Origin: an uncultured bacterium
GTDB lineage: Bacteria > Zixibacteria > MSB-5A5 > CAIYYT01
Assembly (NCBI GenBank): GCA_963726455.1
Contig: CAVSCK010000003.1
Coordinates: 448,001-512,000 of the forward strand
Length of the DNA: 64,000 nucleotides
Reading direction: 5' to 3'
In this document: positions 19,847 through 55,206 of the stretch, one piece after another
How positions within the stretch are numbered: the first letter of the stretch is position 1
Layout of the letters: each line of letters begins with the position of its first letter
Program-made: the position numbers and the translations under genes
Notes under the pieces: generated by a model
Told to the model about the DNA's origin: nothing
Database searches by the model: none
Seen by the model: only the letters and a program-made list of their open reading frames with translations

Positions 19847-20422
19847 CTATTCTGCGGGCTGCTCTGATTCTGTCAATACCTTCCAGGTTTTCGAAGATTG
19901 CAGCCGCTGGATTTCCTGATCGCGTTGGCCATCATCAAACTTCAGGAAAGCATTGTCATTGGCATAGCGTTCATCCTCACTTTCCTCAAGCGACAACAAC
20001 CGCCGAAGCATCAAATAGGCCTCGTCGCATACGCGACGATGCGGAGGTCTCTGATCGGACGACGTGAAGGCGGCTGCCGAGTCGGACTCACGCGTGTCTG
20101 AAAGCATTTTCTCCAAGGTTCCAGTCAGGCGGGCGCGATTCGCAAGGTGAACGACGAGCGCGGCCCTAACGTCCCAAACGTAATCTTCCGGAGGATCATT
20201 CTGCAATGAATCCAGCAACGGGTCGGCGGTGAGTGTACTCAAACGGAGTAACACTGCAGAGGCGGTAGCTCGGGTGTTGTTATCATCGGCGTGGGCAAGC
20301 CGCACAACTTCCCTGGGCTCTTTGAGTGACTTGTCTTTGATCGCGGTCGCCAGACTGTCGATCGACTGTTCGTCGTTCGGCTGTGTCTGCATTATGGTTT
20401 CGCTGACGGTTCGGTACGGCAT
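19847..20422 (-). CDS. Hypothetical alpha-helical (HEAT-like) protein; candidate immunity or partner protein
   Basis: GAGGTG RBS; follows the 20438 gene by 15 bp; RVCDEAYLMLRRL helical motif. Confidence 0.6.
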   Translation of the reverse strand: MPYRTVSETIMQTQPNDEQSIDSLATAIKDKSLKEPREVVRLAHADDNNTRATASAVLLRLSTLTADPLLDSLQNDPPEDYVWDVRAALVVHLANRARLTGTLEKMLSDTRESDSAAAFTSSDQRPPHRRVCDEAYLMLRRLLSLEESEDERYANDNAFLKFDDGQRDQEIQRLQSSKTWKVLTESEQPAE

Positions 20423-20437
20423 GTATTCACCTCTGAC

Positions 20438-21602
20438 TCAATATATTTCGTAGCCCAATCGATTTGCATTCAACTGGATGTTGGTGCGCCGCTTGGCTTC
20501 CTGAAGACTTTTCCACCACGATTCATTGGCGTTCTCTTTAGGAAATTTCATCCAGTTAGTCAGCCACATGGCCGCTGTATCTCCAACGGAGAAGTTCGTT
20601 GTGAAGTAGGCGAATCGGTCCGTGGGGGGATCGTCACGTTTCCAGCCCTTGTAGGCGTCGCGCCTGATGACCTCCCAATAGTGGAGGCGAGAACTGCACC
20701 CGAAATGACAGAATACTCTGCACTTGAAGTCGAGCGCACCGAGATCGAAGGGATCGTTCACGGTGCTGACCCAATCGGCGTAGACGACAATGTTGTCAAG
20801 GCCGCCAAGCTTGAGGCCATAGTATTGATTGTTGTCAGATTCGTAATAAGGGGCAACCTGTCCGGTCAAATCGTCGGGAAGAGTGATCTTGCCGACCTGG
20901 CGCCTGATGTCGGGATGACGATATGCCATTTCGGGCAGACCGTCGGCGGCAGCGACGGGACGAAACTGGTAGCCGTGGTGTTCGATGTCCTTCAATTCAA
21001 CCGGCAGCACGGGATAGCCGAGGCGAAACAATCCGTTGTCGTTTGTCGTACCGTCTTCCCACTGTTCGCCCTGAGGGGTAAATTCACCGCTATACTGATC
21101 GAAGCAGGCGCCGCGGCCATAGCGTGAGTGTCCCTCGTAGATGACCTGGATGCCTTCGGTTTCCAACGCGGCTTTGAACTCGGACTTCGTGCGCACGGCC
21201 TTCACTTTGAAATACACCAATTGCGCATCGCAGACGTATTCACCTTCGTCATCCGAAAGTCGCGTGTAGCCATCGACGTGTTGTTCGAGATATTCCTGAA
21301 GTGGTGTTTCTATACTTTTGCGTAGTCCGCGCGCAATACCTTTAAGAACGGCTGGAGTTCTTTGAAATGGCGCCAGGCCCCGGCCAAATTGCTTTTCCAA
21401 CTCCTGCGAAACCTGTTCGACTTGTTCGGGCGTCGGGTCGTTTTCCAGCGTGTCCGCCCATCTCTTGATTTTGACGGCGCGGGCGCGCTTGTCGCTATCG
21501 TGGAATTCGATGCCTTGAGCGACGATGACATCGCGCTCTTCGTAGCCATCGACAAAACATGCCAAGCTCACCGGTGCCGGTCGGTGTGCCGTTTGCGCCC
21601 AT
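20438..21602 (-). CDS. Putative effector with clan CD (caspase-like) His/Cys motifs
   Basis: VIYEGHSRYG and FCHFGCSS motifs. True start is probably ATG 21602 (GGAG RBS, adjacent to the upstream stop) with one extra G; the ORF track starts at 21571. Confidence 0.55.
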
Positions 21603-22496
21603 CTACTTCTCCAACATTACGCCCTTGGCATGGTGAAACTTGATTACACACTTCCCCGGAGGAAGACTCTCTAACTTCGCGTAACCATTCTGATCGAGTT
21701 GCCCCTGTTGAGTCGTGCCGTCAGGCAGCTCTACTGTATACTGCTCGTTGGCGCCAACCTGGCCTTTGCGATCACGAAGGGTGATCTCGATCGAGTCGCA
21801 AAACACCACAAAGCCCGATTCCTGTCTTCGGCCGAATTCCTGATTGTCGATTTTGACTGTGAAGAAGTATTTCGGAGATGCGTACTTGCGGCCATAGCGC
21901 TGCAAATCCGATTGGGTGGGTATTTCCTCGGTATTGTCCGGGTAATCAAATGCCCACTCGAGGGCGACCTTCTTGTTCTCGACTGTAGCTGCAATCTCGG
22001 CGATTTTATCATGGGCGCCGTCGGCGTCAAATTCGTAGACGATGGTTTTCACCGCGGCGGAGCCGGGAACATTCTCGATTTTCGCATTCAGAGTCAGGAC
22101 ATCGCCCCGGTGAACTTCTTGAGCACTCCAATGCATATCGGTCACCAGAATTGGCGGAACGACAGCGACTGAGTTCGATTTAGCGCTTAAGCCATTCTTC
22201 GGCAATTGGACGTCGAAGTAGACCAACTCTCCTGTCTTGACATCGGGAGGAATCGCAAATGCGCCGATAAATTTGTTTCCGCGAATCTTGCCGGTAACTT
22301 TGCCGAGACTCTTCCCCTTGCTGCTCTTGCCCTTGACTTCAACCGGAGCGCCTTGACCGACAAAAAGGGTGCCGATTTCGAAAAACGCCTGCTGGCCCGC
22401 CGGAGCATATGACTGCTGCCATTCGGCATAAACGAGCATTGATGACAGCGTCAGTTTCTCCTTGCTGTCGGTAGCTTTTGTGAATTTGAGAGCCAT
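21603..22496 (-). CDS. Stand-alone Ig-like + transthyretin-like module protein (paralog 1)
   Basis: Collinear with 26868-27899 and with the PAAR C-terminal extension; ends YTVELPDGTTQQGQLDQNGYAKLESLPPG. Confidence 0.75.
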   Translation of the reverse strand: MALKFTKATDSKEKLTLSSMLVYAEWQQSYAPAGQQAFFEIGTLFVGQGAPVEVKGKSSKGKSLGKVTGKIRGNKFIGAFAIPPDVKTGELVYFDVQLPKNGLSAKSNSVAVVPPILVTDMHWSAQEVHRGDVLTLNAKIENVPGSAAVKTIVYEFDADGAHDKIAEIAATVENKKVALEWAFDYPDNTEEIPTQSDLQRYGRKYASPKYFFTVKIDNQEFGRRQESGFVVFCDSIEITLRDRKGQVGANEQYTVELPDGTTQQGQLDQNGYAKLESLPPGKCVIKFHHAKGVMLEK

Positions 22497-22759
22497 GTAT
22501 ACACCCCCAGGATTTGCCTGGTTATGACCACCCCTTACGGGGAGTTGCCAACATTCTTGTGAGTGATACGAAGGCAGAGATTCTTTGAAGTGACCTAAAT
22601 TGGTCCAGGATCATGTCGGCAGCGGATTTGTAGCCCGCGACATCAGATAGGCGGACCGGCCTGAATCCGCAAAAGCGGGTGAATTCGGCGGGAATATTCC
22701 GCCGGCCAGCTTGTAATTCTGGCAGAGTATTCATTTCCATGACTGAACAGGAGGAGATT

Positions 22760-24411
22760 ATGAAGCACCTCATAGCTGTAATGGCGATGGTTGCGCTGAT
22801 AGTCGCGCAGGCCACGGGGGCGCCACAGCCCGTCAAATCCGAGATCAAGAAGGTAACCGTCTTCCCCGACCGGGCACAGGTATCGAGAGTGGCATCGGCC
22901 AATCTCGACCAAGGAGAGCGACAGCTTGTCTTCGAGGATTTGCCGCTGGAGGCGGACGACGCGTCATTTCACGCAGTTGTCCATGGTGACGACGGTATCC
23001 TGTTTCTGGGACTGACACACAAAGTCGTTCAGCACTTGGAATCTCGCCAGACCCGGATAGCTGAGGTTGAGAAGAAGATCGCTGATATCGAAAAGAATCA
23101 GCGCGAACCAGCCAATCACCGGCAAAACATCTTCTGGCAAGAAAGGGAACTACTTCTCGCTTTGGGCAAGGCAGGCGGCGAACAGATGAACGGCCAGATG
23201 AAGGGTGGCGCGATGGATGTTAAGAGCTGGGAATCCGCATACAATTTCTTCAGTCGGGAATTCGCTGCGATAAGTGATTCACTGCGTTTAGTAGGGCAGA
23301 TCAAGGCCGAAGCGGACACACAGCTCACCCTACTCAAGAATGAATTGCAGGAGATTCGCGGTAGCGGCAGCCGCAATACCAAGACCATTCAGGTGGATTT
23401 GCAGCTGGCGAAAGCGGGAGCCGTGGATGTGACGTTGGACTATGTCGTACCGAACGCCGTCTGGGTGCCAATATATGATGCGCGCCTGAACGCCGACGAA
23501 CAGGTTGACCTCAGCTATTCCGCAGATGTTCAGCAGCGAACGGGTGAAGACTGGAATGACGTTAATCTGACACTGTCGACGGCCAGACCGGCGGAAGGGA
23601 TTACACCGGGAGACATTTCTCCCTGGGTGTTGGTCATTTTCCGACCGGCAATGGAGACGATGAATTTCGGCAGCATTCAGGCGTTGCGGACGAAGAGTTG
23701 CTATTGATGGCACTCAAATTAGGGATCCGTTGGGAATGAGAGGCGGCAGGGATTCGGAAATGGCAAAGCCGATGCTGGCGCAGGTAACTCAGAATCTGGC
23801 TGCCGTCTCGACCTGCTATGTCATTCAGCGCAAGATGACGATTCTCTCGGGTAGGGAAGCCGCACGGGTACCGATCGGGCAATGGACACTGAAGGGAGAC
23901 ATGAAATTGGTTTGTCGTCCACGAAACCATGAAGGTGTCTTTCGGTTTGCGACTTTGACAAATCAAGAGGAAACGCCCTTGCTGCCGGGACCGGTGAATA
24001 TCTTCGCCGGTAACGAATTTCTGGGCACAACCATATTTCGGGACTTGATCGCAGTAAGCCAGAGTTTCGAATTGCCGTTCGGACCGGATAATCGAATCAC
24101 CGTAAAGCGGGAGATTTTATCGCGCAAGACTACCGTCGGAGACGATAATGAAACGCGGCAGGAGACGGTTGCGATCACGCTTACGAATCACGGCAAGGAC
24201 AGCCGTATTGTTACGCTGGAGGAATCATTGCCGACTTCAACCGATAGCCGCATAAAGATCAAGATGGGAGATGTTGTGCCGGAGCCTCGAGTCCAAAGAC
24301 GTCAAAGGAAAGGCATCGTGGTCGTTGACGCTGGCGCCGGGTTCGGAGACAACCGTTCAGATTCCGTACAAGATTGAATTTCCGGTCGGGATGCTCGTGT
24401 CAGGATTCTAG
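22760..24411 (+). CDS. DUF4140/DUF4139 (MuiA-like) secreted protein; frameshifts ~23695 and ~24288
   Basis: Signal peptide; IKKVTVFPDRAQVSR, WVPIYDAR, QRTGEDWNDVNLTLSTARP and LLPGPVNIF motifs. C-terminal WSLTLAPG..IPYKIEFP lies in the shifted frame ending TAG 24411. Confidence 0.85.
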
Positions 24412-24442
24412 GTGCGTTGGCTCAGTATCGGTCGCGGATAAT

Positions 24443-24470
24443 GAAGGGAAGGAGCGCACTCCTTCCCTTC
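24443..24470. terminator. Hairpin between convergent genes
   Basis: GAAGGGAAGGAG-CGCA-CTCCTTCCCTTC, a perfect 12-bp stem. Confidence 0.7.
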
Positions 24471-24480
24471 GCATTTCAAC

Positions 24481-26871
24481 TCAGCCGCGAACGCCCCAGG
24501 AGGGCATGTCGGCCCATTCGTCGGATTCGAAGTCGTAGTCACGGTCAACGTTGATCATGATGTTAGCGTGTTCGACAAGCTGTTCCAGATGAAAGGCCAG
24601 TCCATCGTGCGGGACGGTGAATTCTGAGTGGCCAAATGGCTGACAATTGAGCCATGCCTGTCCGGTAGTGATGCCGTCCTCGAGTCTGAGGTTTATCTCA
24701 ATCTCGTAACTATCTCCGGATGTCCGAACACAGAAATTGGCCGAAATTACGGCGCGTCCGCTTACCGAGGGGACGGTAAAATCACGGTAATGCTCGGTAT
24801 TCCGGGACGGAAACTGAAGTGTGAATTTTGTACGAAAAGTGGCGCCATTGGCATTTCCGAACTCGCAGCGAAAGACAAACTTGGCCGCGTCGGGCAGGAA
24901 CTTGGTGGTAATTTTGATCTCGCACACACGCGTGACCGTGTCGAACATGTGGCAAACCGTGTACTTGTGGCAGCAATTGATCAGTGAGTTGAGCTGCATC
25001 TTGAGTCCCGCATCGTCGGCGCGCCAGGCCTCGTAACGTCCGTCAGCCCACGGCGCCTGACTGCCTTCACCCGGAGTCTTGCCCCACATACATCGAGCGG
25101 CGAAGATTTCCAGATCACTATCCGAGCAGGCCATCACAATTACGGCGCCGGCAGCGGAAATCAGACCAATGACGGCGCCGGCTGGACCGCCGACGCTGCC
25201 GCCATATGCCATGCAGTAGAGCACCAAGCTTAACTCGGCGATGCCCGCACCCACGACGATGGCATTTCCGACCATCGCGTCATAGTCATCCATCCGCCAG
25301 CGATCAGCAGCTCCGCTGCTGCTGCCATAAATGTCGAAGATGTTCTTTACGACCATGGCCTTCATGGCCAAGCCGGTCGCGCCTCTCAGCATAGCCAGAT
25401 TGGCGAGACTGTCGAAAACGTTGGTGATGCGACCAGCATTGACGTCGCCGTCGAGAATTCCCTTTAGTTCCCCGAGACCGCTGGCAATTCGATAGATGCT
25501 GGCAACCTTCACCAATTTCTGCTCGATATCGCTCGTGCGTCCGACTGCCCTAATGTAGCGGCTGGCGGTGTCGCGTATTTCCGTCAGTTCGTCCAGGTAA
25601 TCTCTAAAACCGGACGGACGCCCGACATAATATTTCAGGAGAGCATATGTTGCTACCGTGAAAACTGACGCGATCATTTCCGCAGCGTCAACCTGGCTGA
25701 ACGAGGTTTTCCAGGCAGCGGCCAGAGCAGTATCCTGATTGGTCCCTCTTCCCAATGAGGCCTTGTAGAAAGCAGCCCAGGCATTCTCGCCGGTGTTTTC
25801 TTCCGCGAGTTCGGATAAGTAGTCGGACAATAGTGCGTGATCGCCGGCGATGCTGGTCACGGGAAGCATAATCTGCAGCCAAACCTTGCCATCAAGACGC
25901 AAGCCGTCTTCCTCGTAAATCATGAATTGCTTCTGGAGGTCCTTCATGATCGGACGTGTTAACATATTGTACAGGTTGTCGATCAGAAAGGCCTTGCGAG
26001 TCGCATAGTCGGCGTAGCGGTTGAAATCAGAATCAAGACGTCCCATCTCAAAATCATCGGCGACAGAGCTGTCCTGGTCGGCAAGTTGCTTGCAGAGACA
26101 GGCGAGGATTCCCTTGTAGCGAAGCCGCCTTTCTGCGGTGCTGAGGCGCGGCATGGAAACTCGCGCGTCAACAATCGACGCCAATCGCGAATAGACGCCT
26201 GCGGCATCTACCGTGTGCTCGATAACATAGCCGGGATCAAACACAATCAGACGACCTTCTCCGGGTCCCTGGTCGTTTTCGCGATTGAGCAATCGCAAAC
26301 GACTAAATCTTAGGAAATCGGAAAGTGCACCGTAGGAGCCGGAGAAGATCATATCGGCGGTCTTCGCATTGATTTGGCCGGGCAGCGCAATTGCATAGCA
26401 GTCCGGCAAATCGGCGCGCAGCAGACTGAACAAACTGTTGTCGGAACCTACGCTACGCACCGGCTCGAAATCGCCATCGCCGTTGCGGGTGAACTCGGTC
26501 GAATCCCAGTTGGTGATCCCTCTGTATTCGATTTCCCAGAGCGTCTCACGAGGCTGACAATAGATGTAGACCCAGCGGCCGGTCGCTTCCGATGTTAACG
26601 GGCGAAAGAGCGCGGGAATGTCGACAACGTGATCGTCGTGGAAGAGCGCCAGGAGATTATCCTGATTTTCTACATAGAAGAAGGGCCCACCGGAACCACC
26701 AAGTATCCGCGCAATGAAAGCAAGAACACCCTGGCCGAGATTGCTGCCTAATCGCTCATAGACCACATAGTTGAAGCGTGACAAGACCACCTGGACACGA
26801 TTGGACAGACGGTTTTGCTGGTAGCTTCCCGTAGCGACCTGATGGGTTGAATCCTGATTTCCACCGCTCAT
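24481..26871 (-). CDS. Putative VasX-like pore-forming effector
   Basis: MIX-like RPL...GRWVYIY...LWE motif; C-terminal Gly/Ala-rich hydrophobic helices followed by DSDLEIFAARCMWG; no signal peptide. Confidence 0.55.
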   Translation of the reverse strand: MSGGNQDSTHQVATGSYQQNRLSNRVQVVLSRFNYVVYERLGSNLGQGVLAFIARILGGSGGPFFYVENQDNLLALFHDDHVVDIPALFRPLTSEATGRWVYIYCQPRETLWEIEYRGITNWDSTEFTRNGDGDFEPVRSVGSDNSLFSLLRADLPDCYAIALPGQINAKTADMIFSGSYGALSDFLRFSRLRLLNRENDQGPGEGRLIVFDPGYVIEHTVDAAGVYSRLASIVDARVSMPRLSTAERRLRYKGILACLCKQLADQDSSVADDFEMGRLDSDFNRYADYATRKAFLIDNLYNMLTRPIMKDLQKQFMIYEEDGLRLDGKVWLQIMLPVTSIAGDHALLSDYLSELAEENTGENAWAAFYKASLGRGTNQDTALAAAWKTSFSQVDAAEMIASVFTVATYALLKYYVGRPSGFRDYLDELTEIRDTASRYIRAVGRTSDIEQKLVKVASIYRIASGLGELKGILDGDVNAGRITNVFDSLANLAMLRGATGLAMKAMVVKNIFDIYGSSSGAADRWRMDDYDAMVGNAIVVGAGIAELSLVLYCMAYGGSVGGPAGAVIGLISAAGAVIVMACSDSDLEIFAARCMWGKTPGEGSQAPWADGRYEAWRADDAGLKMQLNSLINCCHKYTVCHMFDTVTRVCEIKITTKFLPDAAKFVFRCEFGNANGATFRTKFTLQFPSRNTEHYRDFTVPSVSGRAVISANFCVRTSGDSYEIEINLRLEDGITTGQAWLNCQPFGHSEFTVPHDGLAFHLEQLVEHANIMINVDRDYDFESDEWADMPSWGVRG

Positions 26872-27899
26872 GTGTTCACCGTTGGCGCATCATCAACGTC
26901 TGTCTCCGAGGCGCTTTCAACTTCAGAAGGTTCTTCTATCTGGCTGCTGTCTGCGACATCAAGTTCCGGATCACTCACGGCACTCGTATCGTTGATGCCC
27001 GTATGCTCTTCCTGATTCACTGCCGGCAAGGCGCCCGGGTAGGTTATCGTCACCTCGCCGGGAGGAATATCCTCCAGCCGTACCCTGCCGTTGTCATCGA
27101 GGTCACCTTCGCGGGTGGTGCCATCGGGAAGCGTGACGACATAATGTTGATTTGGCACCGAGTCATGTTGATCGTCGACCAACTGAATCTCGATCCAATC
27201 CTTGAACAGCAGCAGACCCGATTCCTGCCGTCTGCCGAACTCCTGGTTGTCAACCTTTACGGTGAAGAAGTACTCCGGCGGATTGTAGCTTCTGCCATAC
27301 CGTTGCATTTCCTCGTCGGTGGGGATTTCATCGGTATCTTCGTGATATTCGTAGGCCCACTGCAATTCTATTTTCTTGGAAGTCACAGTTGCCGGCAACT
27401 CGACGATCTTGTCATGGGCGCCGTCCTGATCGTACTCGTAAATGATGACCTTGACCTGTGCTCCTTCGGGAAGGTTCTCAACCGACGCCTTCAACGTAAG
27501 AACTTCACCCCGGCGCGCTTCGGAAGCGCTCCAGGACAAGTCAGATACGATGATCGGCGGAACGGCTGCGACATGATTGGAAGTGGTGCTCAATCCGTTC
27601 TTGGGAAGTTTGACATCGAAAGATACCATGTCGCCTATCTTGGTATCCGAGGGAATCGTAAATTCGCCGATGAACTTATTGGCCCTGACCTTTCCGGTAA
27701 CGGTGCCGAGATTCTTCCCCTTCTTGCTTTTTCCCTTGGCCTGGACCGGCGCGCCCTGCCCGACAAAGATCGTTCCGATCTCAAATGATGCCTTCTGGCC
27801 AACACAGGCGTAGGATTGTTGCCACTCCGCATAGACGATGGAAGCCGTGAGCGTGACTTTCTCTTTGGCATCGGTGGATTTGGTGAATCTCAGTGGCAT
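26868..27899 (-). CDS. Stand-alone Ig-like + transthyretin-like module protein (paralog 2) with acidic tail
   Basis: Shares YAEWQQSYA, FVGQGAPV, DGAHDKI and DNQEFGRRQESG with 21603-22496; its stop overlaps the ATG of the next gene. Confidence 0.75.
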   Translation of the reverse strand: MPLRFTKSTDAKEKVTLTASIVYAEWQQSYACVGQKASFEIGTIFVGQGAPVQAKGKSKKGKNLGTVTGKVRANKFIGEFTIPSDTKIGDMVSFDVKLPKNGLSTTSNHVAAVPPIIVSDLSWSASEARRGEVLTLKASVENLPEGAQVKVIIYEYDQDGAHDKIVELPATVTSKKIELQWAYEYHEDTDEIPTDEEMQRYGRSYNPPEYFFTVKVDNQEFGRRQESGLLLFKDWIEIQLVDDQHDSVPNQHYVVTLPDGTTREGDLDDNGRVRLEDIPPGEVTITYPGALPAVNQEEHTGINDTSAVSDPELDVADSSQIEEPSEVESASETDVDDAPTVNT

Positions 27900-27919
27900 G
27901 ACAATACCCTGCGCTCGTG

Positions 27920-28345
27920 CTAAGTTTCCAGAGTGAAGTTTTCGATCATGCGATCTACTTCGATACCGATCGTCTTGAAAGTTTGTTTCGTGAAGTTGGC
28001 GGTGAACGTGTAGCCGCGATCACCAACGATCACGTAGACATGTTTCTTGAACACCGCTTTGCCGTCGCCGAGGACCATCTTATAGACCCATTCGTAGGCC
28101 TTGACACCGGTTGCGAAAGTGCGCTCTTCTTCTTTCAGGGTTTCGATCCCTGCCATCGAGTCTTTGATCGGCTGCATTCTGTCGAGAGCAAATTCCTTGA
28201 GATCATTGTCTGCCAGATTACGGTCAACGACGAGGTTCAGAATGTGCCGGTACCCATTCACCTCAGGGCCCATGAAGATGTACGCGGTTTGGTCCTCCCA
28301 GCCATCGGGCAACCGCAAGAGAAATCGGGAATTTGTTCCTGCCAT
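27920..28345 (-). CDS. DUF1795/DcrB-like (EagR-type) chaperone
   Basis: LPDGWEDQT, NLVVDR, GDRGYTFTA and DRMIENF; 141 aa; lies in a PAAR locus. Confidence 0.75.
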   Translation of the reverse strand: MAGTNSRFLLRLPDGWEDQTAYIFMGPEVNGYRHILNLVVDRNLADNDLKEFALDRMQPIKDSMAGIETLKEEERTFATGVKAYEWVYKMVLGDGKAVFKKHVYVIVGDRGYTFTANFTKQTFKTIGIEVDRMIENFTLET

Positions 28346-28378
28346 TCGCAGCTCACTTTCTATCTACGGCTGATTGTT

Positions 28379-29620
28379 CTAATGGGCCGTCGTTATCTCG
28401 TAGAGTCCGGCAGTGGTACCGACTACAAGCGTACCTTTCTTGAGTTCGACCACCGGCGTCGTAATACTGCCCTCAAAACCCATCACGGCGAACCGTTCCT
28501 TGCCGTCGGCAGTGAGTGCAACGATGCGGCTTCCGCCGCTAACCACCAGGCAATCGTTGAACAAGGTTGCATAGATGCCGGCGCTCCGGGTGACACCAAG
28601 AGGATATTGCCAAAGACTTTGTCCCGCTACATCGTAGGCCGCCACGCCTTCCTCACCAACGACGTAGATCTTGCCATCAGTTGCAGCCAACGGCGGGCAG
28701 ATTACTTTACCTACCGCTTTGGGAATGACCGCCTTGAAACGGCTGTGGCCATCGGAGGTGAAAGCGAAAAGCTGGTCGGTATCCCCAACGGCGGCGCTAA
28801 GAAATATTTCGGAGTTCAAGCCCGCTGAGGCAAAGCTCGGAACGAAGTCTCCGACGATCACGCGTTGGACCTTGAGATCGTAGTTTAGCACTACTATCCC
28901 CTTCCTGATTGGCTGGACGATCTGCTCGGTGAGGAACACCGGCACGATGAAGAGATCGTCGAAATAGGCAGCCATCTTTTCCTCGCGAATGTCGCTCAAA
29001 TTGAGACTGCCGGCGGGCGGCAGAACATCCTTGATCTTGAACATGCGCAGGAAGGCGGACTGATCACGACGGTCGGGCATCATTTGATATGTATGACAGC
29101 CGGCGATGATAAATCGGTCGCCAATGACGTTGGCCTCATAGAAATGCAACTGTTGAGCGCCGCTGATTATGATCTCACTCAGTTGCTTTCCGTCGGAATC
29201 GTATTCGCACAGGTCATCCCCCAGCGAGTACAGTTTTCCGTTGCTGACGCTGAGGTAGCTGTCGCGACCCCACCAGCGTTGCTCCCGAATCAGGCGCAAG
29301 CTGTCCCGCTCATAGATGCGAAACACGCCCTGGGATTCGACGATGAGTTTCGGTCCGTTAAGATAGAGCGCTCTGACCTCGGCGTCTCCAACTCTTTTCA
29401 CTAAATAGTCAGCTTCTGAGGGATAGTCAAACTTCTGGTAGCAGTTGCCGTTGCGCAACGGGTTAACAAAGCGACAGGTGAAACCGACCGGCGGAGCCGC
29501 AACGGGCTGAGGTTCAGACGCGGAGGTGGACGGCTGGAGCTCTATTATTGGGAACGACTCAGGGATCACATGCCTTTCGTCACCCACGAACAACCAGTTA
29601 TCATAAATGCGCACGTCCAT
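28379..29620 (-). CDS. PQQ-like beta-propeller protein
   Basis: PPLAATDGKIYV, AYDVAGQSLWQY and ALTADGKERF repeats; start at ATG 29620 with AGGAG RBS. Confidence 0.7.
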   Translation of the reverse strand: MDVRIYDNWLFVGDERHVIPESFPIIELQPSTSASEPQPVAAPPVGFTCRFVNPLRNGNCYQKFDYPSEADYLVKRVGDAEVRALYLNGPKLIVESQGVFRIYERDSLRLIREQRWWGRDSYLSVSNGKLYSLGDDLCEYDSDGKQLSEIIISGAQQLHFYEANVIGDRFIIAGCHTYQMMPDRRDQSAFLRMFKIKDVLPPAGSLNLSDIREEKMAAYFDDLFIVPVFLTEQIVQPIRKGIVVLNYDLKVQRVIVGDFVPSFASAGLNSEIFLSAAVGDTDQLFAFTSDGHSRFKAVIPKAVGKVICPPLAATDGKIYVVGEEGVAAYDVAGQSLWQYPLGVTRSAGIYATLFNDCLVVSGGSRIVALTADGKERFAVMGFEGSITTPVVELKKGTLVVGTTAGLYEITTAH

Positions 29621-29689
29621 CTTAGCTCCTTGACATGAGACCAAAGCACTCAAAAAAAAAGAACCCCTAACAGAACCAGTCGCGAATAT

Positions 29690-32600
29690 TTAGGCAAGTT
29701 TCACCGTCCCGTTGGGCACAAAGTCACCGACGGCAAAGTTGGTGGCACTTGGAGTCTGTCCATTGGTCAATCCAACCATCTCTGCGAAATACTTCCAAAA
29801 ATCAGTGGAATCTGCGACAGCCAGGTCCAATTCGCCCGGATCGTCGTCGAAATCATCCCACTCGCTCGTGCCGGAATTGGCGACGTCTATCTCATAATGC
29901 GGTTGCGCCTCTGGCTGCGTCAATATCCAATCCCTCTGGGCATTATATTTTCCGGCCGTGTCAAGTCTGGCGGAATAGGTAGCCGCATATTCGGGCGTAT
30001 AGTTATTCACCAGGTAGCGTGGCTGAAACTGCACCAGGGTCTCCGTATAGGGGGCGTCTCCGCAAATCTTTATGACATTATTATCTGCGAATTGTCTGGT
30101 GATGCCAAGATCGATTTTGCCGAGCGAATCGACAATCTGAGCCATGGTGGCGGAGGCACCGATAAGCGGGTCCCAGTACTGTAGACGCAGGTTGACCTTG
30201 ACGACTAGTAGCGCCGTAAATTTCTTCAGAATTCGTGGCAACGCCTGGCTGTAACGGTCTTCGCCGAGAGGATACAGATAGAGGTTGAATCTTCCCGTGC
30301 CGCTAACCGAGTTTGATCGATTGTTCTCCTGTTTGCTCGGATAATTAAGGTAGTGATCGGCATCGGTACCAACGTCGGCGGGGTCCCAGGTGAGCGTTGG
30401 GTTGAAGGGAAGTTTATAATCAGGAGCGCTCCACTTACTAATAATGAAATCGTACTTCTTGCCGGCTGTTAGTCGAGTTCGCAACCATTCAGCATAGTGC
30501 CAATAATGGCGGGCGCGAATGTAAAGGTTGCTCATCATCATCGAACCGCTGTCGGCATTGTATGGCGCTCCCGGCTTGAAATCCGGAAGCCCCATCATTC
30601 CATAGCAACAGTTGTCCCATTTTTCGTGATAGTCATCGTCCAAACTACTGGCGTGTCCGGTCTCGTGGGCGGCAGTCAACTGAGTTCCGACCCCGGCCCT
30701 GGCGGTCTGATTGGATCTGATCTCGCCTTTGTCCCGGCTCATGAAAGAACGACCGGCAGCGCCGGCAGGATGAACCGAAATGATCGTATGCTGCTGAGGG
30801 AGATCGACGTGCTGAATATAGAATCGGATATTGACACGCTGCTTGGTTAGTTCGTTCGACGCAAAAAGTGAAACCAGCCGGGTGCCGCCGTCTTCGAAGT
30901 CGTTCCAGGCATTCGTTATGTTCTTTAGGGAATCGTCGATCCACGTCGGGGTGACGACGGGACTGGTGGCAACTTTATCCTGAAGGTGCCACCTGAAGTA
31001 ACTGAAGATGTATGAGATTTCCTCGCCGTCCTTGTAGCCTTTTTCGCGAAGAAGATAGCAATCGAAATTCCCTAGCGACCAATTCCAATTAGTCTTGTTC
31101 TCCCGCACGCGGTAGTGTCGTTGTTGAAAGCTCGCAACAAAAGTGCATTTGGTGGCGTGATTGTACACCGCGGCTCGATGGCCCAGACGCTGCCCGGCGG
31201 TAAGGCGGTCTTTGAATGTGGCGTACAACTTGTTCTGCGCGACGACACCGCCGATAGGAGTGCCGAAGAATGGCAGGTAGGATGAAACCATTAATCCCGT
31301 CGTGATTTCGCCGTCGGCCGCCACCGTGCCGGCGATCTTCTCGGTGTAGTAACTTTGATGGTTTGTAGCGTCCGGGTTGATAACGCCGAATTTATCGTCG
31401 AGAACTGCTATGCGCTGCATGACCGGAATGTTCTCCGGCGCGAGATTGGCGGCCGTGAGAACCAGATCATCCAGTGAAAACACGATCGGCTTGGCCGGCT
31501 GCGTAATTCGACCACCAAACGGCTTGAACTTGTCTGCCGCGGGGCTCGCGGAAGTAAACAAGAAGCGGAAGACATACTTCTTGTCCTGATTCTTGGTCAC
31601 GTCGTCAAGGGTGACGCCACCGCCCGCCTGATTTTGAGGCCTGGCGCACCAATCATCGGATATCCATTTTGCCGGAAGATCGTAGTATTTCCATTTTTCT
31701 TCGGCATCGCTCTTATTCGCATCGCGCAAATCTTTCAGGGCTTTCTGCATCTCAGCATCGGTGACTATCTTGCCGGCATCGTCAGCGCTGGATTTGAAGA
31801 TCCACTTGCCCGCCGCTTCAAAGACGAATTGCAGTTTAGATCGGGTCGGATCAGTAAGGCGATTTCCGAAGTTCACCTTGAGACTGTAGACGCCGTCTTT
31901 CCACTTGCACTTGGACGGCAATGGCGCGCCGTCGTTTTCAGAAACCTGAAACTGCAGGCCGTCGGGTGCACTGTCGAGTTTCCCATATTTTAGATGGTAG
32001 TAGACGAAGCGCAGGTGATACACAACCGAGGTCAGGTCAGTGCCGTCAGGGTATATTCGTTTGAAATGATACTTGTGCCACATCGGGCATTCAGGGGCCT
32101 TGTGGACAGTATCTACACGGGCAGGACAATCGATCACAGGGATATTCTCTTTGTCGAAAAAGAATAATTCGACGCGGCGATTAACCTGTGAACGGTAATT
32201 GCTCTTCTCGGCATCGTCGATCGGAAATGATTCTCCGCAGGAGAGATATTTCTTCATATCGTCACAATATTTCAGACGAGAGCGATACTCAGAAGTTAAC
32301 AATTCGCGACTGACCTGCAGGGCTGCCGCGATGTCGTCGTTATAGATGTCATAGACGGCGAGCCACATTTCCATCGGCCACTTGTGCGCTCCGTCATTCT
32401 TGATCTTCGCGTGCGTACCCTCCGGTATCGTGACGCTTTCAGCGGGGGCGAGACCGCTGAGAACCCAATCGTTGTAATGGGAAATGAAGGCCTTGCAGGC
32501 ATCGCTGACGTCATTGCTCCATTTGTCATCAAGTTTCACAGGGTCGCAATCGGCCCAGCTTCTGCGGTTCTTTACGTACAAGAGAATCTGCTGATAGTCT

Positions 32601-33064
32601 TCAATTCGATGCCGCTTCTTGGAGACCTCCGCCCATTTGTCGCGAGTGCCTTCGAGTAGATACATGACATTCTGGGCACGCAGGTCAGACAACTCGAAGT
32701 TCATTTTTGCGGCCCCGGAAGTATCGGTATGCCCGGCAATCAGCAGGCGCTTTTCGGGATCGAATTCGAATTGCTTCAGCCCAAGCGCCAGCGCCTGCAA
32801 TCCGGAAACCTTGTCCTGGTCTTCCTGCAATTTGGCATCGTCGGGGTCGGTAGCATTTTCCGCGGCGCCGTCACTCGATGATTTTCCCTGCGGGCGTTCG
32901 GGCATCATCACGGCGCTGTCAAGATGGAAGAGCACATCCTCCATCTCGAGCATCAGGACTTCGGCCGGATCAAGCTCGAATTCGGGGAACACCGTGGTGT
33001 CGGCGTCCTTGCCCCCAATCATTTCTCGAAAAGTGCAGGGTTTCTTTACGGCAGGTTTGGACAT
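29690..33064 (-). CDS. Large protein: split OmpA-C-like domain with PG-binding-like insert, plus HExxH metallopeptidase domain
   Basis: VLFHLDSAV, IAGHTDTSG..NFELSDLRA and GESFP..NRRVELFFF; AAHETGHASSLDDDY at ~30653-30667; no signal peptide. Confidence 0.7.
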   Translation of the reverse strand: MSKPAVKKPCTFREMIGGKDADTTVFPEFELDPAEVLMLEMEDVLFHLDSAVMMPERPQGKSSSDGAAENATDPDDAKLQEDQDKVSGLQALALGLKQFEFDPEKRLLIAGHTDTSGAAKMNFELSDLRAQNVMYLLEGTRDKWAEVSKKRHRIEDYQQILLYVKNRRSWADCDPVKLDDKWSNDVSDACKAFISHYNDWVLSGLAPAESVTIPEGTHAKIKNDGAHKWPMEMWLAVYDIYNDDIAAALQVSRELLTSEYRSRLKYCDDMKKYLSCGESFPIDDAEKSNYRSQVNRRVELFFFDKENIPVIDCPARVDTVHKAPECPMWHKYHFKRIYPDGTDLTSVVYHLRFVYYHLKYGKLDSAPDGLQFQVSENDGAPLPSKCKWKDGVYSLKVNFGNRLTDPTRSKLQFVFEAAGKWIFKSSADDAGKIVTDAEMQKALKDLRDANKSDAEEKWKYYDLPAKWISDDWCARPQNQAGGGVTLDDVTKNQDKKYVFRFLFTSASPAADKFKPFGGRITQPAKPIVFSLDDLVLTAANLAPENIPVMQRIAVLDDKFGVINPDATNHQSYYTEKIAGTVAADGEITTGLMVSSYLPFFGTPIGGVVAQNKLYATFKDRLTAGQRLGHRAAVYNHATKCTFVASFQQRHYRVRENKTNWNWSLGNFDCYLLREKGYKDGEEISYIFSYFRWHLQDKVATSPVVTPTWIDDSLKNITNAWNDFEDGGTRLVSLFASNELTKQRVNIRFYIQHVDLPQQHTIISVHPAGAAGRSFMSRDKGEIRSNQTARAGVGTQLTAAHETGHASSLDDDYHEKWDNCCYGMMGLPDFKPGAPYNADSGSMMMSNLYIRARHYWHYAEWLRTRLTAGKKYDFIISKWSAPDYKLPFNPTLTWDPADVGTDADHYLNYPSKQENNRSNSVSGTGRFNLYLYPLGEDRYSQALPRILKKFTALLVVKVNLRLQYWDPLIGASATMAQIVDSLGKIDLGITRQFADNNVIKICGDAPYTETLVQFQPRYLVNNYTPEYAATYSARLDTAGKYNAQRDWILTQPEAQPHYEIDVANSGTSEWDDFDDDPGELDLAVADSTDFWKYFAEMVGLTNGQTPSATNFAVGDFVPNGTVKLA

Positions 33065-33072
33065 TGTCTCTA

Positions 33073-34149
33073 TCAACTACTTCCGGGAAACTTGTCATCT
33101 CTGACATTGACTGAGATTTTCAGTTTCCCCGGGGCTACATCGGTTACTTTGGCATAGCCACCGCCGTCGAGTTTGCCTTCCTTGACTTCTCCGGACGGCA
33201 AAATCACGCGATATTTCTTGTCGCCGATGGCGTTACCTTCTTTATCCTTGAGCTTGAATTCCAGATCATCCACGTATTCCAGCAGGCCGGAGCGTTGTGT
33301 CAGGGTCGACGTCTTGGCGACAAAGTAGTAGGCCGGCGACGAATAACCACCGCCCTTCAACTTCTTTTCCTGGAGCTTGAGGAAGTCCTGGTCAACGACG
33401 AGTTCCCACTCGCCTTCGATCTTGTCGCCCTTAACGGTAGTTTCTATCTGCTTGAGAACCTGGTCGGGGAAGTTAGTGTCCCGGACGTGCACCTCCAGAA
33501 ATGCCTTTTGCCCTTCGGGAACGCCGGTGGTCTCAGCAGTCATTTGAACCTTCTCCCCTACCTTGGCGGAGTCTTTGGACCACTTGGCGCTGATGATCGC
33601 CCTGATTTCGATGTCGTAATTGCCGGGATCGATGTTGGCTTGCTTGACGCTGCCGGTCAGCGGCGATACACTCTTATTGCTCGATGGCGAGGTCAACTCA
33701 TATTCGGCGCCGGTGATAGGGAATCCGCCATTATCTACAATGGCGACATCCAAAAAATGTCCCTCCGGCTTTTCCATCGCAGCAGTCGCTGCCTCGGCCT
33801 CGGCGCTCTTCTCACCACCTCCGGTTCCGGCTCCTGCACCGGGGCTCATCGCATCCCCAATAAGCACAGTAGGGCAACCCATAGCGATACTGTCGGGCGG
33901 GCCTGCACAAAGCACCGGGTCACCGACTCGCGCGGCAGGCATATTGCCAATCATGACGCTGGCGCTGCCTTTCAGAATCGGGCCACCAACGTGCGGTGGT
34001 GGTGGAACACCCGGATTGAGCAGAGGACAGATATGGTTGTCTCCCATCCGGGCAGCCGGCATACCGCCGATTAGGACCATAGGAAATCCAACCATAATTG
34101 TTCCACCATGAACGGTCGAGTCAAATTGTCTGGCTGCGGGTTGTCCCAT
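33073..34149 (-). CDS. PAAR domain protein with C-terminal transthyretin-like/Ig-like extension
   Basis: Three PAAR motifs (GQPAAR, GMPAARMGD, NMPAARVGD) with His/Cys Zn ligands; C-terminal YRVILPSGEVKEGKLDGGGYAKV. Confidence 0.92.
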   Translation of the reverse strand: MGQPAARQFDSTVHGGTIMVGFPMVLIGGMPAARMGDNHICPLLNPGVPPPPHVGGPILKGSASVMIGNMPAARVGDPVLCAGPPDSIAMGCPTVLIGDAMSPGAGAGTGGGEKSAEAEAATAAMEKPEGHFLDVAIVDNGGFPITGAEYELTSPSSNKSVSPLTGSVKQANIDPGNYDIEIRAIISAKWSKDSAKVGEKVQMTAETTGVPEGQKAFLEVHVRDTNFPDQVLKQIETTVKGDKIEGEWELVVDQDFLKLQEKKLKGGGYSSPAYYFVAKTSTLTQRSGLLEYVDDLEFKLKDKEGNAIGDKKYRVILPSGEVKEGKLDGGGYAKVTDVAPGKLKISVNVRDDKFPGSS

Positions 34150-34331: not shown

Positions 34332-34901
34332 CTAGTTGTGTTCGGAGCTGGCTGTAGCCGCGTTCTTGGTGTTGGAGGATGATTCCTTGAGCGGGAGTCC
34401 ACACACCGGGCAGTACAAGTACTCTTTTTCGACCCATTTGTGGCCGTATTCGCACTGCTTTACCTTATGCTTCTGGTCGATGTAGACGTCGTCCCAGTCG
34501 GCTAGTATGGTGTAGTAGAGAGTGTTGCCCGAAACCCGCAGCGCCAGCGAAATTTCCTCTACCTTACAGATGGTCTCGCCGTCACATTCCAAGTAAATAG
34601 GGATCTTCTGCGTGGAAATCAGTTTCTCGGGACCACCCTTGGCAGGCCGCTCTGATTCACGGGATTCGATTTCGATTGTGGTCTCGCCGGTTCTCCCCAA
34701 AAAGACCAAGCTGCGCAAGGTCGTGACCTTGTCCACCGTCATACCCCATGAGGCAATTGATTGATTCGGTAACGCCGAAGTCGATTGGCCACCCTTGTAG
34801 TAACGGGTAGTCGTGATTTTCATGTCGGCGCGCAAATCTGATGCCAAGGCAAAGGCCAATGCAAGCGATACTATTAGCAGACTTGACGAGATTTTTCTCA
34901 C
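34332..34901 (-). CDS. Secreted hypothetical protein with C-terminal zinc ribbon
   Basis: Signal peptide; CEYGH...YCPVCG. Confidence 0.65.
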   Translation of the reverse strand: MRKISSSLLIVSLALAFALASDLRADMKITTTRYYKGGQSTSALPNQSIASWGMTVDKVTTLRSLVFLGRTGETTIEIESRESERPAKGGPEKLISTQKIPIYLECDGETICKVEEISLALRVSGNTLYYTILADWDDVYIDQKHKVKQCEYGHKWVEKEYLYCPVCGLPLKESSSNTKNAATASSEHN

Positions 34902-54264: not shown

Positions 54265-55206
54265 ATGAGCTCTGATAAGATATTCATTCACGAGGTTGGA
54301 CCGCGAGACGGTTTGCAGGTCGAGAAATCGACTGTTCCGCTCGAGGTAAAAATCAGATGGATTGACGGCCTGCTCGAAAGTGGGATTGATATTATTCAAC
54401 TCGGTTCCTTTGTGAATCCCGAAAAGGTTCCTCAGATGGCTGACACCGATAAGCTGTTCACTCATTACACTTCATCTGGCAAGAAACCGAGTGGCGCCGC
54501 ACTGTCGGGTCTGGTACTGAATGAAAAAGGCCAGGAGCGTGCCATGGCTTGTGGTGTGGAAATGCTTTGTATGGGCGTTTCGGTTAGCGAGACACACAGT
54601 CGGAAGAACACGGGGATGAGCACCTCAGAAGCTCTCGGGCGTATCGTGCCGATGGCGAAAAGTGCATTGGCCATAGGCAAAAGAGTACAAGTGTCGGTTC
54701 AGTCTGCCTTTGGCTGCGGATTCGAGGGACCCATCCCGCAGGAAAAGGTCTTGGGAATCGTCAAAGAATATCTCAACGCCGGTATTCGTAACATCAGTCT
54801 TGCCGATACCGCGGGCCACGCACAACCCCTGCAAGTAGAACAATTGTTCGGAAAGATCCGACAGCTTGATGCGAGCGCTGAACTGGCCTGTCATTTTCAC
54901 AACACCTACGGTCTCGGGTTGGCCAATTGCTTCGCGGCCCTGAAAGCGGGCGTCACCTACTTCGAGTCTGCGTTCGGCGGTCTCGGCGGCTGCCCGTTCA
55001 CCAAGCTCCCGGCCGGCAATGTAAGCACTGAGGATTTGGTGCATTCGCTGCAGCGGATGGGATTTCGGAGTGATATCAAACTTGACGTCCTGTTGGAAAC
55101 AGCACGCGCGGTAGCGGCCTTCTTCAACAGAGAATTGCCGGGACTGGTTCTTAAATCAGGATCGATTGTGGGCTTCAAAGGAAAAGAAAACAAAGAGGTG
55201 GTATGA
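54265..55206 (+). CDS. HMG-CoA lyase family (DRE-TIM) lyase
   Basis: EVGPRDGLQ, VPQMAD, HFHNTYG and GGLGGCPF...GNVSTED motifs. Confidence 0.92.
   Translation: MSSDKIFIHEVGPRDGLQVEKSTVPLEVKIRWIDGLLESGIDIIQLGSFVNPEKVPQMADTDKLFTHYTSSGKKPSGAALSGLVLNEKGQERAMACGVEMLCMGVSVSETHSRKNTGMSTSEALGRIVPMAKSALAIGKRVQVSVQSAFGCGFEGPIPQEKVLGIVKEYLNAGIRNISLADTAGHAQPLQVEQLFGKIRQLDASAELACHFHNTYGLGLANCFAALKAGVTYFESAFGGLGGCPFTKLPAGNVSTEDLVHSLQRMGFRSDIKLDVLLETARAVAAFFNRELPGLVLKSGSIVGFKGKENKEVV

Follow-up and report, generated by a model that had tools for sequence, protein, structure and literature searches.

Why should one small protein module be encoded three times within fifteen kilobases, once on the tip of a secretion spike and twice on free proteins, and each time directly in front of a different large gene? 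This question is raised by positions 19847-34149 of a stretch of 64,000 nucleotides (hereafter the window; positions 448,001 to 512,000 of contig CAVSCK010000003.1, GenBank assembly GCA_963726455.1) from an uncultured member of the Zixibacteria, where an immunoglobulin-like (Ig) plus transthyretin-like (TTR) module is fused to a PAAR protein and recurs in two stand-alone genes, here named AD-A and AD-B. We think it fairly likely that the locus encodes a PAAR tip with a built-in loading platform, together with free secreted carriers (the AD proteins) that load further effectors, and that both serve a type VI secretion system (T6SS) of a T6SS-iii-like kind. All coordinates without further label are positions in the window, and the whole gene row lies on the minus strand, save for one DUF4140/DUF4139 gene.

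As judged from the alignments, the sharing of the module is far beyond chance. The C-terminal ~170 residues are common to the PAAR protein, AD-A and AD-B, corresponding to residues ~118-297 in the stand-alone proteins, and the PAAR protein is 25% identical to each of these two. The three-way alignment contains 54 invariant columns, among them the W..S..G, YxxPxYFF, SG, LPxG and LDxxG elements, which the first-pass annotation of this DNA had already listed as common to the three genes. AD-A and AD-B additionally share an N-terminal domain of ~115 residues and are 61% identical overall. A hidden Markov model built from the three copies detected 113 module proteins in 79 related loci, and a 45-sequence module profile run against 1.84 billion proteins yielded 288 cluster representatives at E<=1e-30, 1510 at 1e-10 and 5671 at 0.001.

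The predicted structures describe the same relationship at the level of domains. The spike-tip protein (358 amino acids, aa; 33073-34149) is composed of a PAAR domain (residues 1-99), a Gly-rich disordered linker (101-128), a first small beta domain (~131-173), an Ig-like domain (~179-249), a helix (254-265) and a transthyretin-like domain (~273-347). Its PAAR domain, called as such in the first-pass annotation and, in proteins of this kind, the cone capping VgrG, is confirmed, as it matches PF05488 at 1.5e-22 (80 bits versus a cut-off of 27), and residues 3-98 of the AlphaFold2 (AF2) model (pLDDT 82.1) superpose on chain 4jiw_D with Z 15.2, a root-mean-square deviation (rmsd) of 1.5 and 39% identity in VIA-align, for which the comparison set comprised 48,161 chains. 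The AF2 model of AD-B, based on a 41-row alignment (pLDDT 86.9, pTM 0.76), is all-beta with three sandwich domains: a conserved but disordered N-terminus (1-19) is followed by Ig1 (20-113), Ig2 (117-182), a low-confidence acidic loop (187-194), a helix (195-201) and a transthyretin-like sandwich (~209-287). Ig1 resembles best the MG domain of alpha-2-macroglobulin (2p9r_B, Z 11.4), and the shared Ig domain resembles best the N-terminal domain of Bacteroides fragilis BtaeB (9jdh_A), followed by a chain of the spike cargo complex (9jg8_C). The former superposes on AD-B residues 115-233 with Z 11.3 (rmsd 2.2, 106 residues) and on residues 182-294 of the PAAR protein with Z 11.7 (rmsd 2.1, 105 residues), a likeness which, given generic Ig rows at Z ~10, is a lead and not proof. 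At the sequence level, a profile of PAAR plus module matches the B. fragilis PAAR protein 8gra_J at 6e-14 with its C-terminal Ig extension included (independent E value of 0.0017), and the module profile alone matches this extension at E 0.0019. Matches of the module profile to the TTR domains of VgrG2b (6h56, E 0.026) and of VgrG1 from enteroaggregative Escherichia coli (EAEC; 6sjl, E 0.27) are weak. The structural rows barely cover the last, transthyretin-like domain, and Foldseek on the whole AD model returned macroglobulin-domain arrays only (TM 0.27), uninformative beyond tandem beta-sandwiches. AD-A and AD-B have no Pfam match, and in the PAAR protein SpaA (PF17802) reaches 20.1 bits (cut-off 23.1) on the first beta domain (residues 139-180); in some relatives it exceeds the cut-off on the last domain (25.0-27.2 bits), where CarboxypepD_reg (PF13620) matches too. 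The models, with their all-beta sandwiches, support the Ig-like and transthyretin-like nature that had been assigned to the module from its letters.

Each copy of the module is followed by a gene of its own. The PAAR gene is joined to cargo 1 (1128 aa, 29690-33076) by a TTGA overlap, or separated from it by 8 nucleotides (nt) if the ATG at 33064 is the start, which is likely the true one. AD-A (343 aa, 26868-27899), consisting of the N-terminal peptide, Ig1, Ig2, the transthyretin-like domain and an acidic tail (~300-343), has its stop codon in an ATGA overlap with the start of cargo 2a (796 aa, 24481-26871). The TAG stop of AD-B (297 aa, 21603-22496) is directly abutted by an ATG (21602) whose frame is shifted by one base against the open reading frame (ORF) of cargo 2b (20438-21602; 377 aa as called from a GTG at 21571); the family-like N-terminus of cargo 2b begins at this ATG, and as the longer N-terminus of its relatives matches both frames joined, there is an apparent frameshift near 21575. 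The first-pass annotation had taken all three pairs to be translationally coupled, and all three junctions are indeed tight. That the three cargos are unrelated and lack signal peptides was confirmed, as BLASTP among them gave nothing below E 0.1 and none carries an N-terminal hydrophobic segment; likewise, none has a sequence relative among solved structures at E<=0.1.

What these cargos might do can be read from them to differing degrees. Cargo 1 has an OmpA-like segment (residues 93-140; PF00691 at 2.7e-5) which, with 24.8 bits, lies below the cut-off of 27.2, and cargos of relatives at the same position score 32.0 and 28.5 bits, above it. Its HETGH at residue 804 (30653-30667) belongs to an AHExGHA...D[DE]Y motif present in 22 of 23 homologues, all of which are encoded downstream of a PAAR+module gene, and cargo 1 is accordingly predicted as a peptidoglycan-binding HExxH zinc metallopeptidase. 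Cargo 2a, with six homologues each downstream of an AD gene, aligns with NCBIfam NF041559 (BTH_I2691) over residues 511-609 only (2.1e-4, 19.9 bits versus a family cut-off of 150) and has two hydrophobic helices in a hairpin at 532-585, so that it falls short of family membership but may work like the pore-former VasX/BTH_I2691. In the cargo 2b family, whose four homologues are likewise all encoded behind an AD gene, GHSRYGRGACF and CHFGCSS do not vary among 5 sequences, which suggests a Cys/His enzyme. Neither cargo 2a nor cargo 2b matches any Pfam family. Of the labels in the first-pass annotation, the HExxH motif has therefore held, OmpA and VasX-like stay below their cut-offs, and the His/Cys protease comes down to two motifs.

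Two further genes of the row are candidate immunity genes. The 424-aa ORF behind cargo 1 (28379-29653) begins right on an LVSC lipobox, with a T9 run just upstream (29640-29690), and probably encodes the lipoprotein immunity protein to cargo 1. Its frame continues the one that ends with the stop of the 1128-aa gene, and no standard start codon is available for the signal peptide. In relatives, most genes between cargo 1 and the Eag-like gene described below start with lipoprotein-type signal peptides, which at this position fits periplasmic immunity proteins. The 191-aa protein at 19847-20422, lacking a signal peptide, has homologues in 5 loci and stands beside a cargo 2b homologue in the gene maps that show both (L011, L040 and L045), and by this co-occurrence it may be the immunity protein accompanying cargo 2b.

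Is this an isolated island or a part of something larger? A word-indexed protein search with AD-A gave 782 relatives at E<=0.001, most of ~290-305 aa and 50-80% identical, which, where named, are hypothetical proteins of Candidatus Zixiibacteriota or of metagenome-assembled genomes (MAGs) of the FCB group; homologues 79% identical to AD-A also occur in metagenomes. From a profile-guided scan with one genome per species (193 relatives), 79 loci were retained, labelled as Zixibacteria, Ignavibacteria, Krumholzibacteria, GN15 and one Acidoferrum MAG. Their ORFs were called by a simple greedy caller (1190 proteins) and searched by phmmer with this genome's own proteins as queries, by which 71 of the 79 had module proteins, 52 the Eag-like protein, 46 and 49 the two ClpV halves, 44 TssC, 41 TssB, 40 VgrG, 32 TssD and 31 a cargo-1128-like protein, all of them lower bounds, as contig ends truncate many of the loci. 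Gene order recurs as PAAR+module, cargo (often 1128-like), a ~400-aa protein, the Eag-like gene, AD and one or two variable genes, and then the core: clpV, tssB, tssC, tssD, vgrG, a 124-aa gene and tssF. Thus in most of the related loci the loading genes lie directly upstream of clpV-tssB-tssC-tssD-vgrG. An origin of the PAAR protein from an extracellular contractile injection system or a phage tail was rejected, as its relatives adjoin ClpV, TssB/C, TssD, VgrG and TssF/G.

The same linkage is seen across whole genomes. In a sample of the phylum that comprises 200 further genomes, AD and TssC are both present in 100, TssC only in 4, AD only in 5 and neither in 91, in a manual cross-tabulation of the AD profile against PF17541 in which related genomes are not independent; the five AD-only genomes are all weak matches (E 1e-13 to 1e-17). 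PF17541 matches in 104 of the 201 genomes searched, and tssC and tssD are intact in relatives. Usually a genome has one full AD match and one module-only match (profile positions ~118-295, which is the PAAR+module gene), whereas this genome has two full AD matches. Orphan AD-cargo pairs far from T6SS core genes were also observed (L013, L014, L016, L019, L022, L026, L032), in a conserved context: AD is preceded by a ~558-aa gene and by one of ~520 aa on the opposite strand, and followed by genes of 781 and 345 aa. These pairs are auxiliary cassettes like the second cassette of this window.

In the window itself, Pfam searches over all 54 ORFs of at least 80 aa found no T6SS core gene, as the first-pass annotation had stated. 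A T6SS-iii-like core cluster lies ~230 kb away on the same contig (C3:703-718.5 kb), with genes for VgrG (Phage_GPD + Phage_base_V), TssG, TssB (VipA), TssC (PF17541), TssD (PF17642) and ClpV, in a genome of 3.64 Mb in 5 contigs that is rated 100% complete. PF17541 is found in two ORF fragments (2.3e-10 and 9.9e-4), PF17642 at 2.2e-11, and the whole genome has no match to TssC PF05943, Hcp PF05638, TssM PF06761 or TssK PF05936. It is on this presence of iii-type TssC and TssD and the absence of the four other families that we call the machine T6SS-iii-like; as its hosts lie outside the Bacteroidota, we do not file it as a member of subtype iii. Subtype iii is marked by TssN-R in place of a TssJ/L/M membrane complex; four further cluster proteins (289, 620, 304 and 527 aa) have no Pfam family, no search having been aimed at TssN-R. 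ClpV appears as two adjacent ORFs, one of ~484 aa with the N-domain and AAA D1 and one of ~366 aa with D2, in this genome (L005 15988-18518, on C3) and in most of L011-L087, and as a single ORF of ~840 aa in some relatives; since most loci have two ORFs, the split looks natural.

In the two closest loci (L009, L010) the island lies beside TerC/CBS/DUF502/nuo genes as here, with one AD and not two. AD and tssC are on different contigs in seven genomes of the organism's own family, compared by eye, and only a few kb apart in other families, so that detachment from the core looks like a trait of this family. The reading in the first-pass annotation is partly supported: the locus is one for T6SS effector loading, contractile machinery is present in the genome, and module homologues go closely with T6SS genes, as gene order in the 79 loci and the 200-genome sample show. 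Its "orphan system", by contrast, forms the 5' part of a T6SS-iii-like cluster, which it directly abuts in most relatives and from which it has become detached here.

The adaptor-then-variable-gene rule put forward in the first-pass annotation was found to hold in relatives. The 113 module proteins comprise 67 of AD type and 46 of PAAR type, and for 108 of them a further gene follows in the same orientation, mostly at gaps of -14 to +80 nt. For the 63 proteins encoded after AD, BLASTP gives 31 clusters (18 of them singletons, the largest with 6 members), and for the 45 encoded after PAAR+module it gives 15, the largest of which (23) is the 1128-like metallopeptidase. A Pfam family was assigned at E<=0.001 to 13 of 45 cargo cluster representatives and to none of the other 32; six of the 13 have cell-wall-binding domains (PG_binding_1, OmpA, LysM, SH3_3), one is a protein-arginine deiminase (PAD) and one a metallophosphoesterase (Metallophos).

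Furthermore, nature has fused the module both to spike parts and to toxins. Pfam on the 113 module proteins found PAAR in 42, AD followed by an AHH nuclease in 3 and PAAR plus module plus Tlde1 in 1. When 38 long or odd matches of the module profile (A5) were examined, they included Hcp + module (P0196), a weak VgrG + module (P0195), PAAR + module with a long extension (P0234), AD + phage lysozyme (P0198), AD + PG_binding_1, AD + OmpA, AD + metallo-beta-lactamase and module + Peptidase_M15; by BLASTP, P0196 is 35% identical over 182 residues and P0198 38% over 294. The word-indexed search had found only one longer fused form, the exhaustive profile search many. These natural fusions show that the module and AD are carriers. 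In another protein (P0210, 1511 aa), the Ig-TTR module stands after an Rhs core domain, the usual place of the Rhs toxin.

Among 62 AD proteins, no part varies more than the TTR domain (mean identity 0.478), whose identity is 0.607 between proteins with the same downstream cargo family versus 0.473 otherwise; after regressing out the identity of Ig1+Ig2, an excess of +0.11 remains, which no permutation of the labels attained (0 of 1000). In the same 62 proteins, the N-terminal peptide shows no identity excess with cargo family. Measured against the PAAR domain as yardstick in 41 PAAR+module proteins, the Ig domain, the linker and TTR2 co-vary with cargo family (0, 0 and 5 of 1000 permutations) and TTR1 does not (154 of 1000).

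The gene directly upstream of AD-A encodes a cytoplasmic 141-aa protein (27920-28345) resembling the Eag/DUF1795 chaperones. Alone, its match to DcrB/PF08786 (3.7e-5, 24.3 bits) stays below the cut-off of 27.2, but a 48-sequence profile of its family matches EagT6 (6xrf) at 2.9e-5 and PA0094 (1tu1) at 3e-5; the DUF1795 gene reported in the first-pass annotation is present, though weak by its own sequence. Homologues in the 52 related loci stand mostly just upstream of AD, and DcrB is found naturally fused to a full AD (P0205; BLASTP 38% over 288 residues). Classical members of the Eag group cover the transmembrane helices at the N-terminus of PAAR effectors. The 141-aa protein is like EagT6 and SciW in being small, cytoplasmic and encoded beside T6SS spike cargo, but while the clients of these have transmembrane helices, neither AD-A and AD-B nor the PAAR protein has any hydrophobic segment. 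A role as shield for hydrophobic cargo was considered and dropped for lack of association. From the fixed place before AD, the DcrB-AD fusion and this missing tie to hydrophobic cargo we infer that the client is AD, perhaps its conserved N-terminal peptide.

Taken together, these results fit a model in which the island is the effector-loading arm of a T6SS-iii-like system, moved away from the core in this genome's family. In the first slot, the module fused to PAAR would ride on the tip of the VgrG spike and recruit the next-encoded HExxH metallopeptidase, whose putative lipoprotein immunity gene comes after it. In the second, the module would sit behind the 19-residue peptide and an Ig-like domain in the free ~300-aa AD protein, which would be secreted with the spike, carrying the protein encoded next, and the Eag/DUF1795-like chaperone made just upstream probably acts on AD. 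With two AD-cargo cassettes, this organism might thus load a possible pore-former and a possible Cys/His enzyme.

Several observations weigh against this model. The matches to BtaeB lie only ~1 Z unit above the generic Ig-like rows. A cassette exchange with its breakpoint inside the gene would give the same co-variation, which hence demonstrates that the module travels with its cargo, without proving contact, and the permutation counts overstate significance because related genomes share labels. The co-folding check that the first-pass annotation had proposed, made with AD-A (residues 1-300) and cargo 2a (residues 1-420), scored 0.38 (runs 0.38, 0.29 and 0.46) versus a best of 0.00 among 3 controls, with runs agreeing in at least 56% of contacts and a partner pLDDT of at least 54; the outcome was graded as weak support. 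In the calibration, 58 of 80 solved complexes attained the mark, as did 2 of 110 mismatched pairs, but with scores of 0.60 or less only 7 of the 80 solved complexes did so, along with both of those mismatches. A common N-terminal loading tag in the cargos was dropped as an idea, as a Gibbs search revealed no significant motif shared by 28 AD-cargo family representatives within their first 65 residues (12.14 bits versus 11.85 +/- 0.40 in 12 random control sets). Cargos with hydrophobic helices are found in 11 of 41 cases with an Eag-like gene upstream versus 7 of 17 without, which makes this gene unlike a classical Eag. Finally, AD is about as well conserved as core components are (MAGs with distant labels share 45-50% identity) and near-universal along with TssC, which suits a structural protein no less than an adaptor.

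The last point leads to the rival that we take most seriously, yet still regard as unlikely: AD would mainly be a structural or assembly part, associated with spike or baseplate and needed for firing, and the variable genes would merely fill the variable region of the cluster, their products being loaded via Hcp, VgrG or PAAR. Its presence in 100 of the 104 TssC-positive genomes of the 200-genome sample, the usual count of exactly one full AD per genome and an identity of 45-64% across the 79 loci are what such a part would show, and some Bacteroides locus-II effectors and adaptors are likewise required for T6SS function, as stated in the available portions of PMC13402684 and PMC13699834. It accounts poorly, however, for the extra AD-cargo cassettes away from the core (in this window and in the seven orphan loci named above), for the AD proteins fused to toxin domains and for the co-variation of the AD TTR end with cargo family. 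Very improbable, in our view, is that AD and the PAAR extension are target-binding parts which grip the prey surface or peptidoglycan after injection while the downstream toxins act independently. The generic beta-sandwich folds do match adhesins, invasin/intimin and carbohydrate-binding modules at Z 8-10, the TTR part matches the biofilm-associated surface protein 7dm0 at 5.7e-7, and large CarboxypepD_reg repeat proteins match it too; the very long multi-repeat matches of the profile are probably unrelated surface proteins sharing the TTR part only. But the proteins have no signal peptides, their genes are tightly linked to the cargo gene and often overlap it, the module also occurs behind PAAR and Hcp (more weakly VgrG) and co-varies with cargo family, and the extension is homologous to that of a PAAR protein solved on a VgrG spike.

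A rival of another kind holds that the island is a relic in this genome, with sheath and tube genes broken and the PAAR, AD and cargo genes out of use for secretion, to which we assign a low probability. In this assembly tssC spans three frames and tssD two; relative to a same-genus genome with intact tssC (488 aa) and tssD (141 aa), there are five single-base (+1) insertions in tssC and one in tssD, no PF17541 match reaches E<=1e-10 in this genome, and cargo 2b is frameshifted at its start, so that the T6SS may not fire in this organism. All other ORFs of the island, including those of 1128 and 796 aa, are nevertheless intact, and the six indels, which lie within 1.4 kb of the interval C3:713500-716050, none in a homopolymer and with neighbouring T6SS genes open, fit either a local consensus error or real decay. 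Among public sequencing runs the best held 0.05 of the sampled words and none contained the sequence. Moreover, a relic would concern activity in this genome and not the nature of the system.

The concept of such a carrier is in print, contrary to the first-pass annotation, which had not recognised the architecture as described. In the T6SS of Vibrionaceae, secreted RIX-TTR adaptors consist of an N-terminal delivery domain and, behind it, a TTR domain for which binding to the N-terminus of the next-encoded effector is predicted, and RIX replaces PAAR or VgrG in otherwise homologous cargo-immunity modules, according to the part of Kanarek et al. (2023, PMC10435454) available to us, to which the comparisons that follow are also confined. 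In both cases a free protein, secreted in Vibrio and putatively so here, ends in a TTR-like platform and is encoded directly before the cargo and its immunity gene, the same platform module is also found behind PAAR or VgrG, and some members have fused toxins instead of the platform. The delivery part differs, being a conserved 19-residue peptide plus an Ig-like domain in AD but an arginine-rich RIX domain there; by reading of the sequence, the first 19 residues of AD-B and the family consensus over that stretch contain no arginine. The platform of AD is Ig + TTR and its hosts are FCB-group MAGs with a T6SS-iii-like machine, whereas RIX belongs to Vibrio and T6SS-i. Lastly, AD is near-universal, normally inside the main cluster and accompanied by an Eag-like gene, while RIX genes are described as orphan.

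A second precedent is the GA3 T6SS-iii of B. fragilis, which belongs to the same subtype family (TssC PF17541, TssD PF17642) and in which the PAAR protein for Bte2 (PDB 8GRA) has an Ig-like C-terminal extension homologous to the PAAR extension described here. As far as the accessible text of PMC13699834 and PMC13402684 goes, delivery there is paired, the PAAR-effector BtpeA and BtaeB being secreted together by way of the adaptor BtapC, and in some strains PAAR is decoupled from its effector. Such a spike thus carries two effectors, one PAAR-linked and one held via accessory proteins (BtpeA-BtapC-BtaeB on VgrG, PDB 9JG8 and 9JDH). The extension found here is longer, having two TTR-like domains plus the Ig domain, and in place of an effector with its own N-terminal domain, the second slot here is a free Ig-Ig-TTR protein plus a separate cargo; the hosts, too, are of another phylum. 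EAEC VgrG1 (6SJL) and Pseudomonas aeruginosa VgrG2b (6H56) also have a C-terminal TTR-like sandwich on a spike protein as a proposed cargo holder, although the E values of 0.27 and 0.026 are not significant alone, and in the present family the TTR domain always follows an Ig-like domain and helix and occurs on a free protein as well. Among the papers listed on type VI secretion in Zixibacteria and Ignavibacteria and on T6SSiii effector adaptors, titles and abstract openings gave no account of the AD family or the lineage.

Some neighbouring features deserve mention. The DUF4140/DUF4139 gene (22679-24377, plus strand; two frames of 342 and 215 aa, assigned by Pfam) between both AD cassettes is not part of the system; it has no homologue among the 79 related loci. 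Upstream of the PAAR gene lies a gene for a 189-aa protein with a signal peptide (34332-34901), whose position is kept in the two closest related loci only, and just upstream of the island (34997-37045, minus strand) a 682-aa fusion of radical SAM/SPASM and class I SAM methyltransferase without evident link to it. By Pfam, the remainder of the window holds housekeeping genes only, and long ORFs cover 92.6% of the window as a whole. A CoA_transf_3 ORF (55203-55892, plus strand) matches no more than positions 1-212 of a profile of 366, and a 200-aa ORF on the other strand comes after it; here, too, a frameshift has probably broken the gene. Elsewhere in the genome, contig C5 (L007 6491-10546) has a second, plain PAAR gene (123 aa) and then a 1206-aa fusion in which DUF4123, a Tap/Tec-type adaptor domain, forms the N-terminus of an Rhs protein, and beside these a 1969-aa cadherin/Big_9 protein with a type IX secretion system sorting tail.

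What is new, then, is a family of free Ig-Ig-TTR proteins, putative carriers, that share the Ig-TTR module with the PAAR tip and are near-universal in a T6SS-iii-like FCB-group lineage, where they are paired with an Eag-like protein lacking a transmembrane client and mark dozens of unannotated cargo families. Somewhat speculatively, and with more doubt than confidence, one may go further and regard AD as the lineage-wide second cargo slot of a T6SS-iii-like machine outside the Bacteroidota, which shares its module with PAAR, would engage a repurposed Eag-like chaperone via its N-terminal peptide and would dock beside PAAR, so that each shot would deliver one PAAR-held and at least one AD-held toxin, the exchangeable TTR end setting specificity by cassette exchange.

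In a 2026 review, as far as its available text shows, T6SS-iii is confined to the Bacteroidota (PMC13584744); the homologues and related loci described here carry the source names Candidatus Zixiibacteriota, Krumholzibacteriota, GN15, FCB group and Ignavibacteria, which places a T6SS-iii-like system outside that phylum. While effector choice and loading by T6SS-iii are only now being worked out in gut Bacteroides, the AD family would represent a simple and widespread two-slot layout, with the same module on the tip and on a free carrier, and the rule that the gene after AD encodes the putative cargo offers a handle for new antibacterial toxins in uncultivated Zixibacteria and allied phyla.

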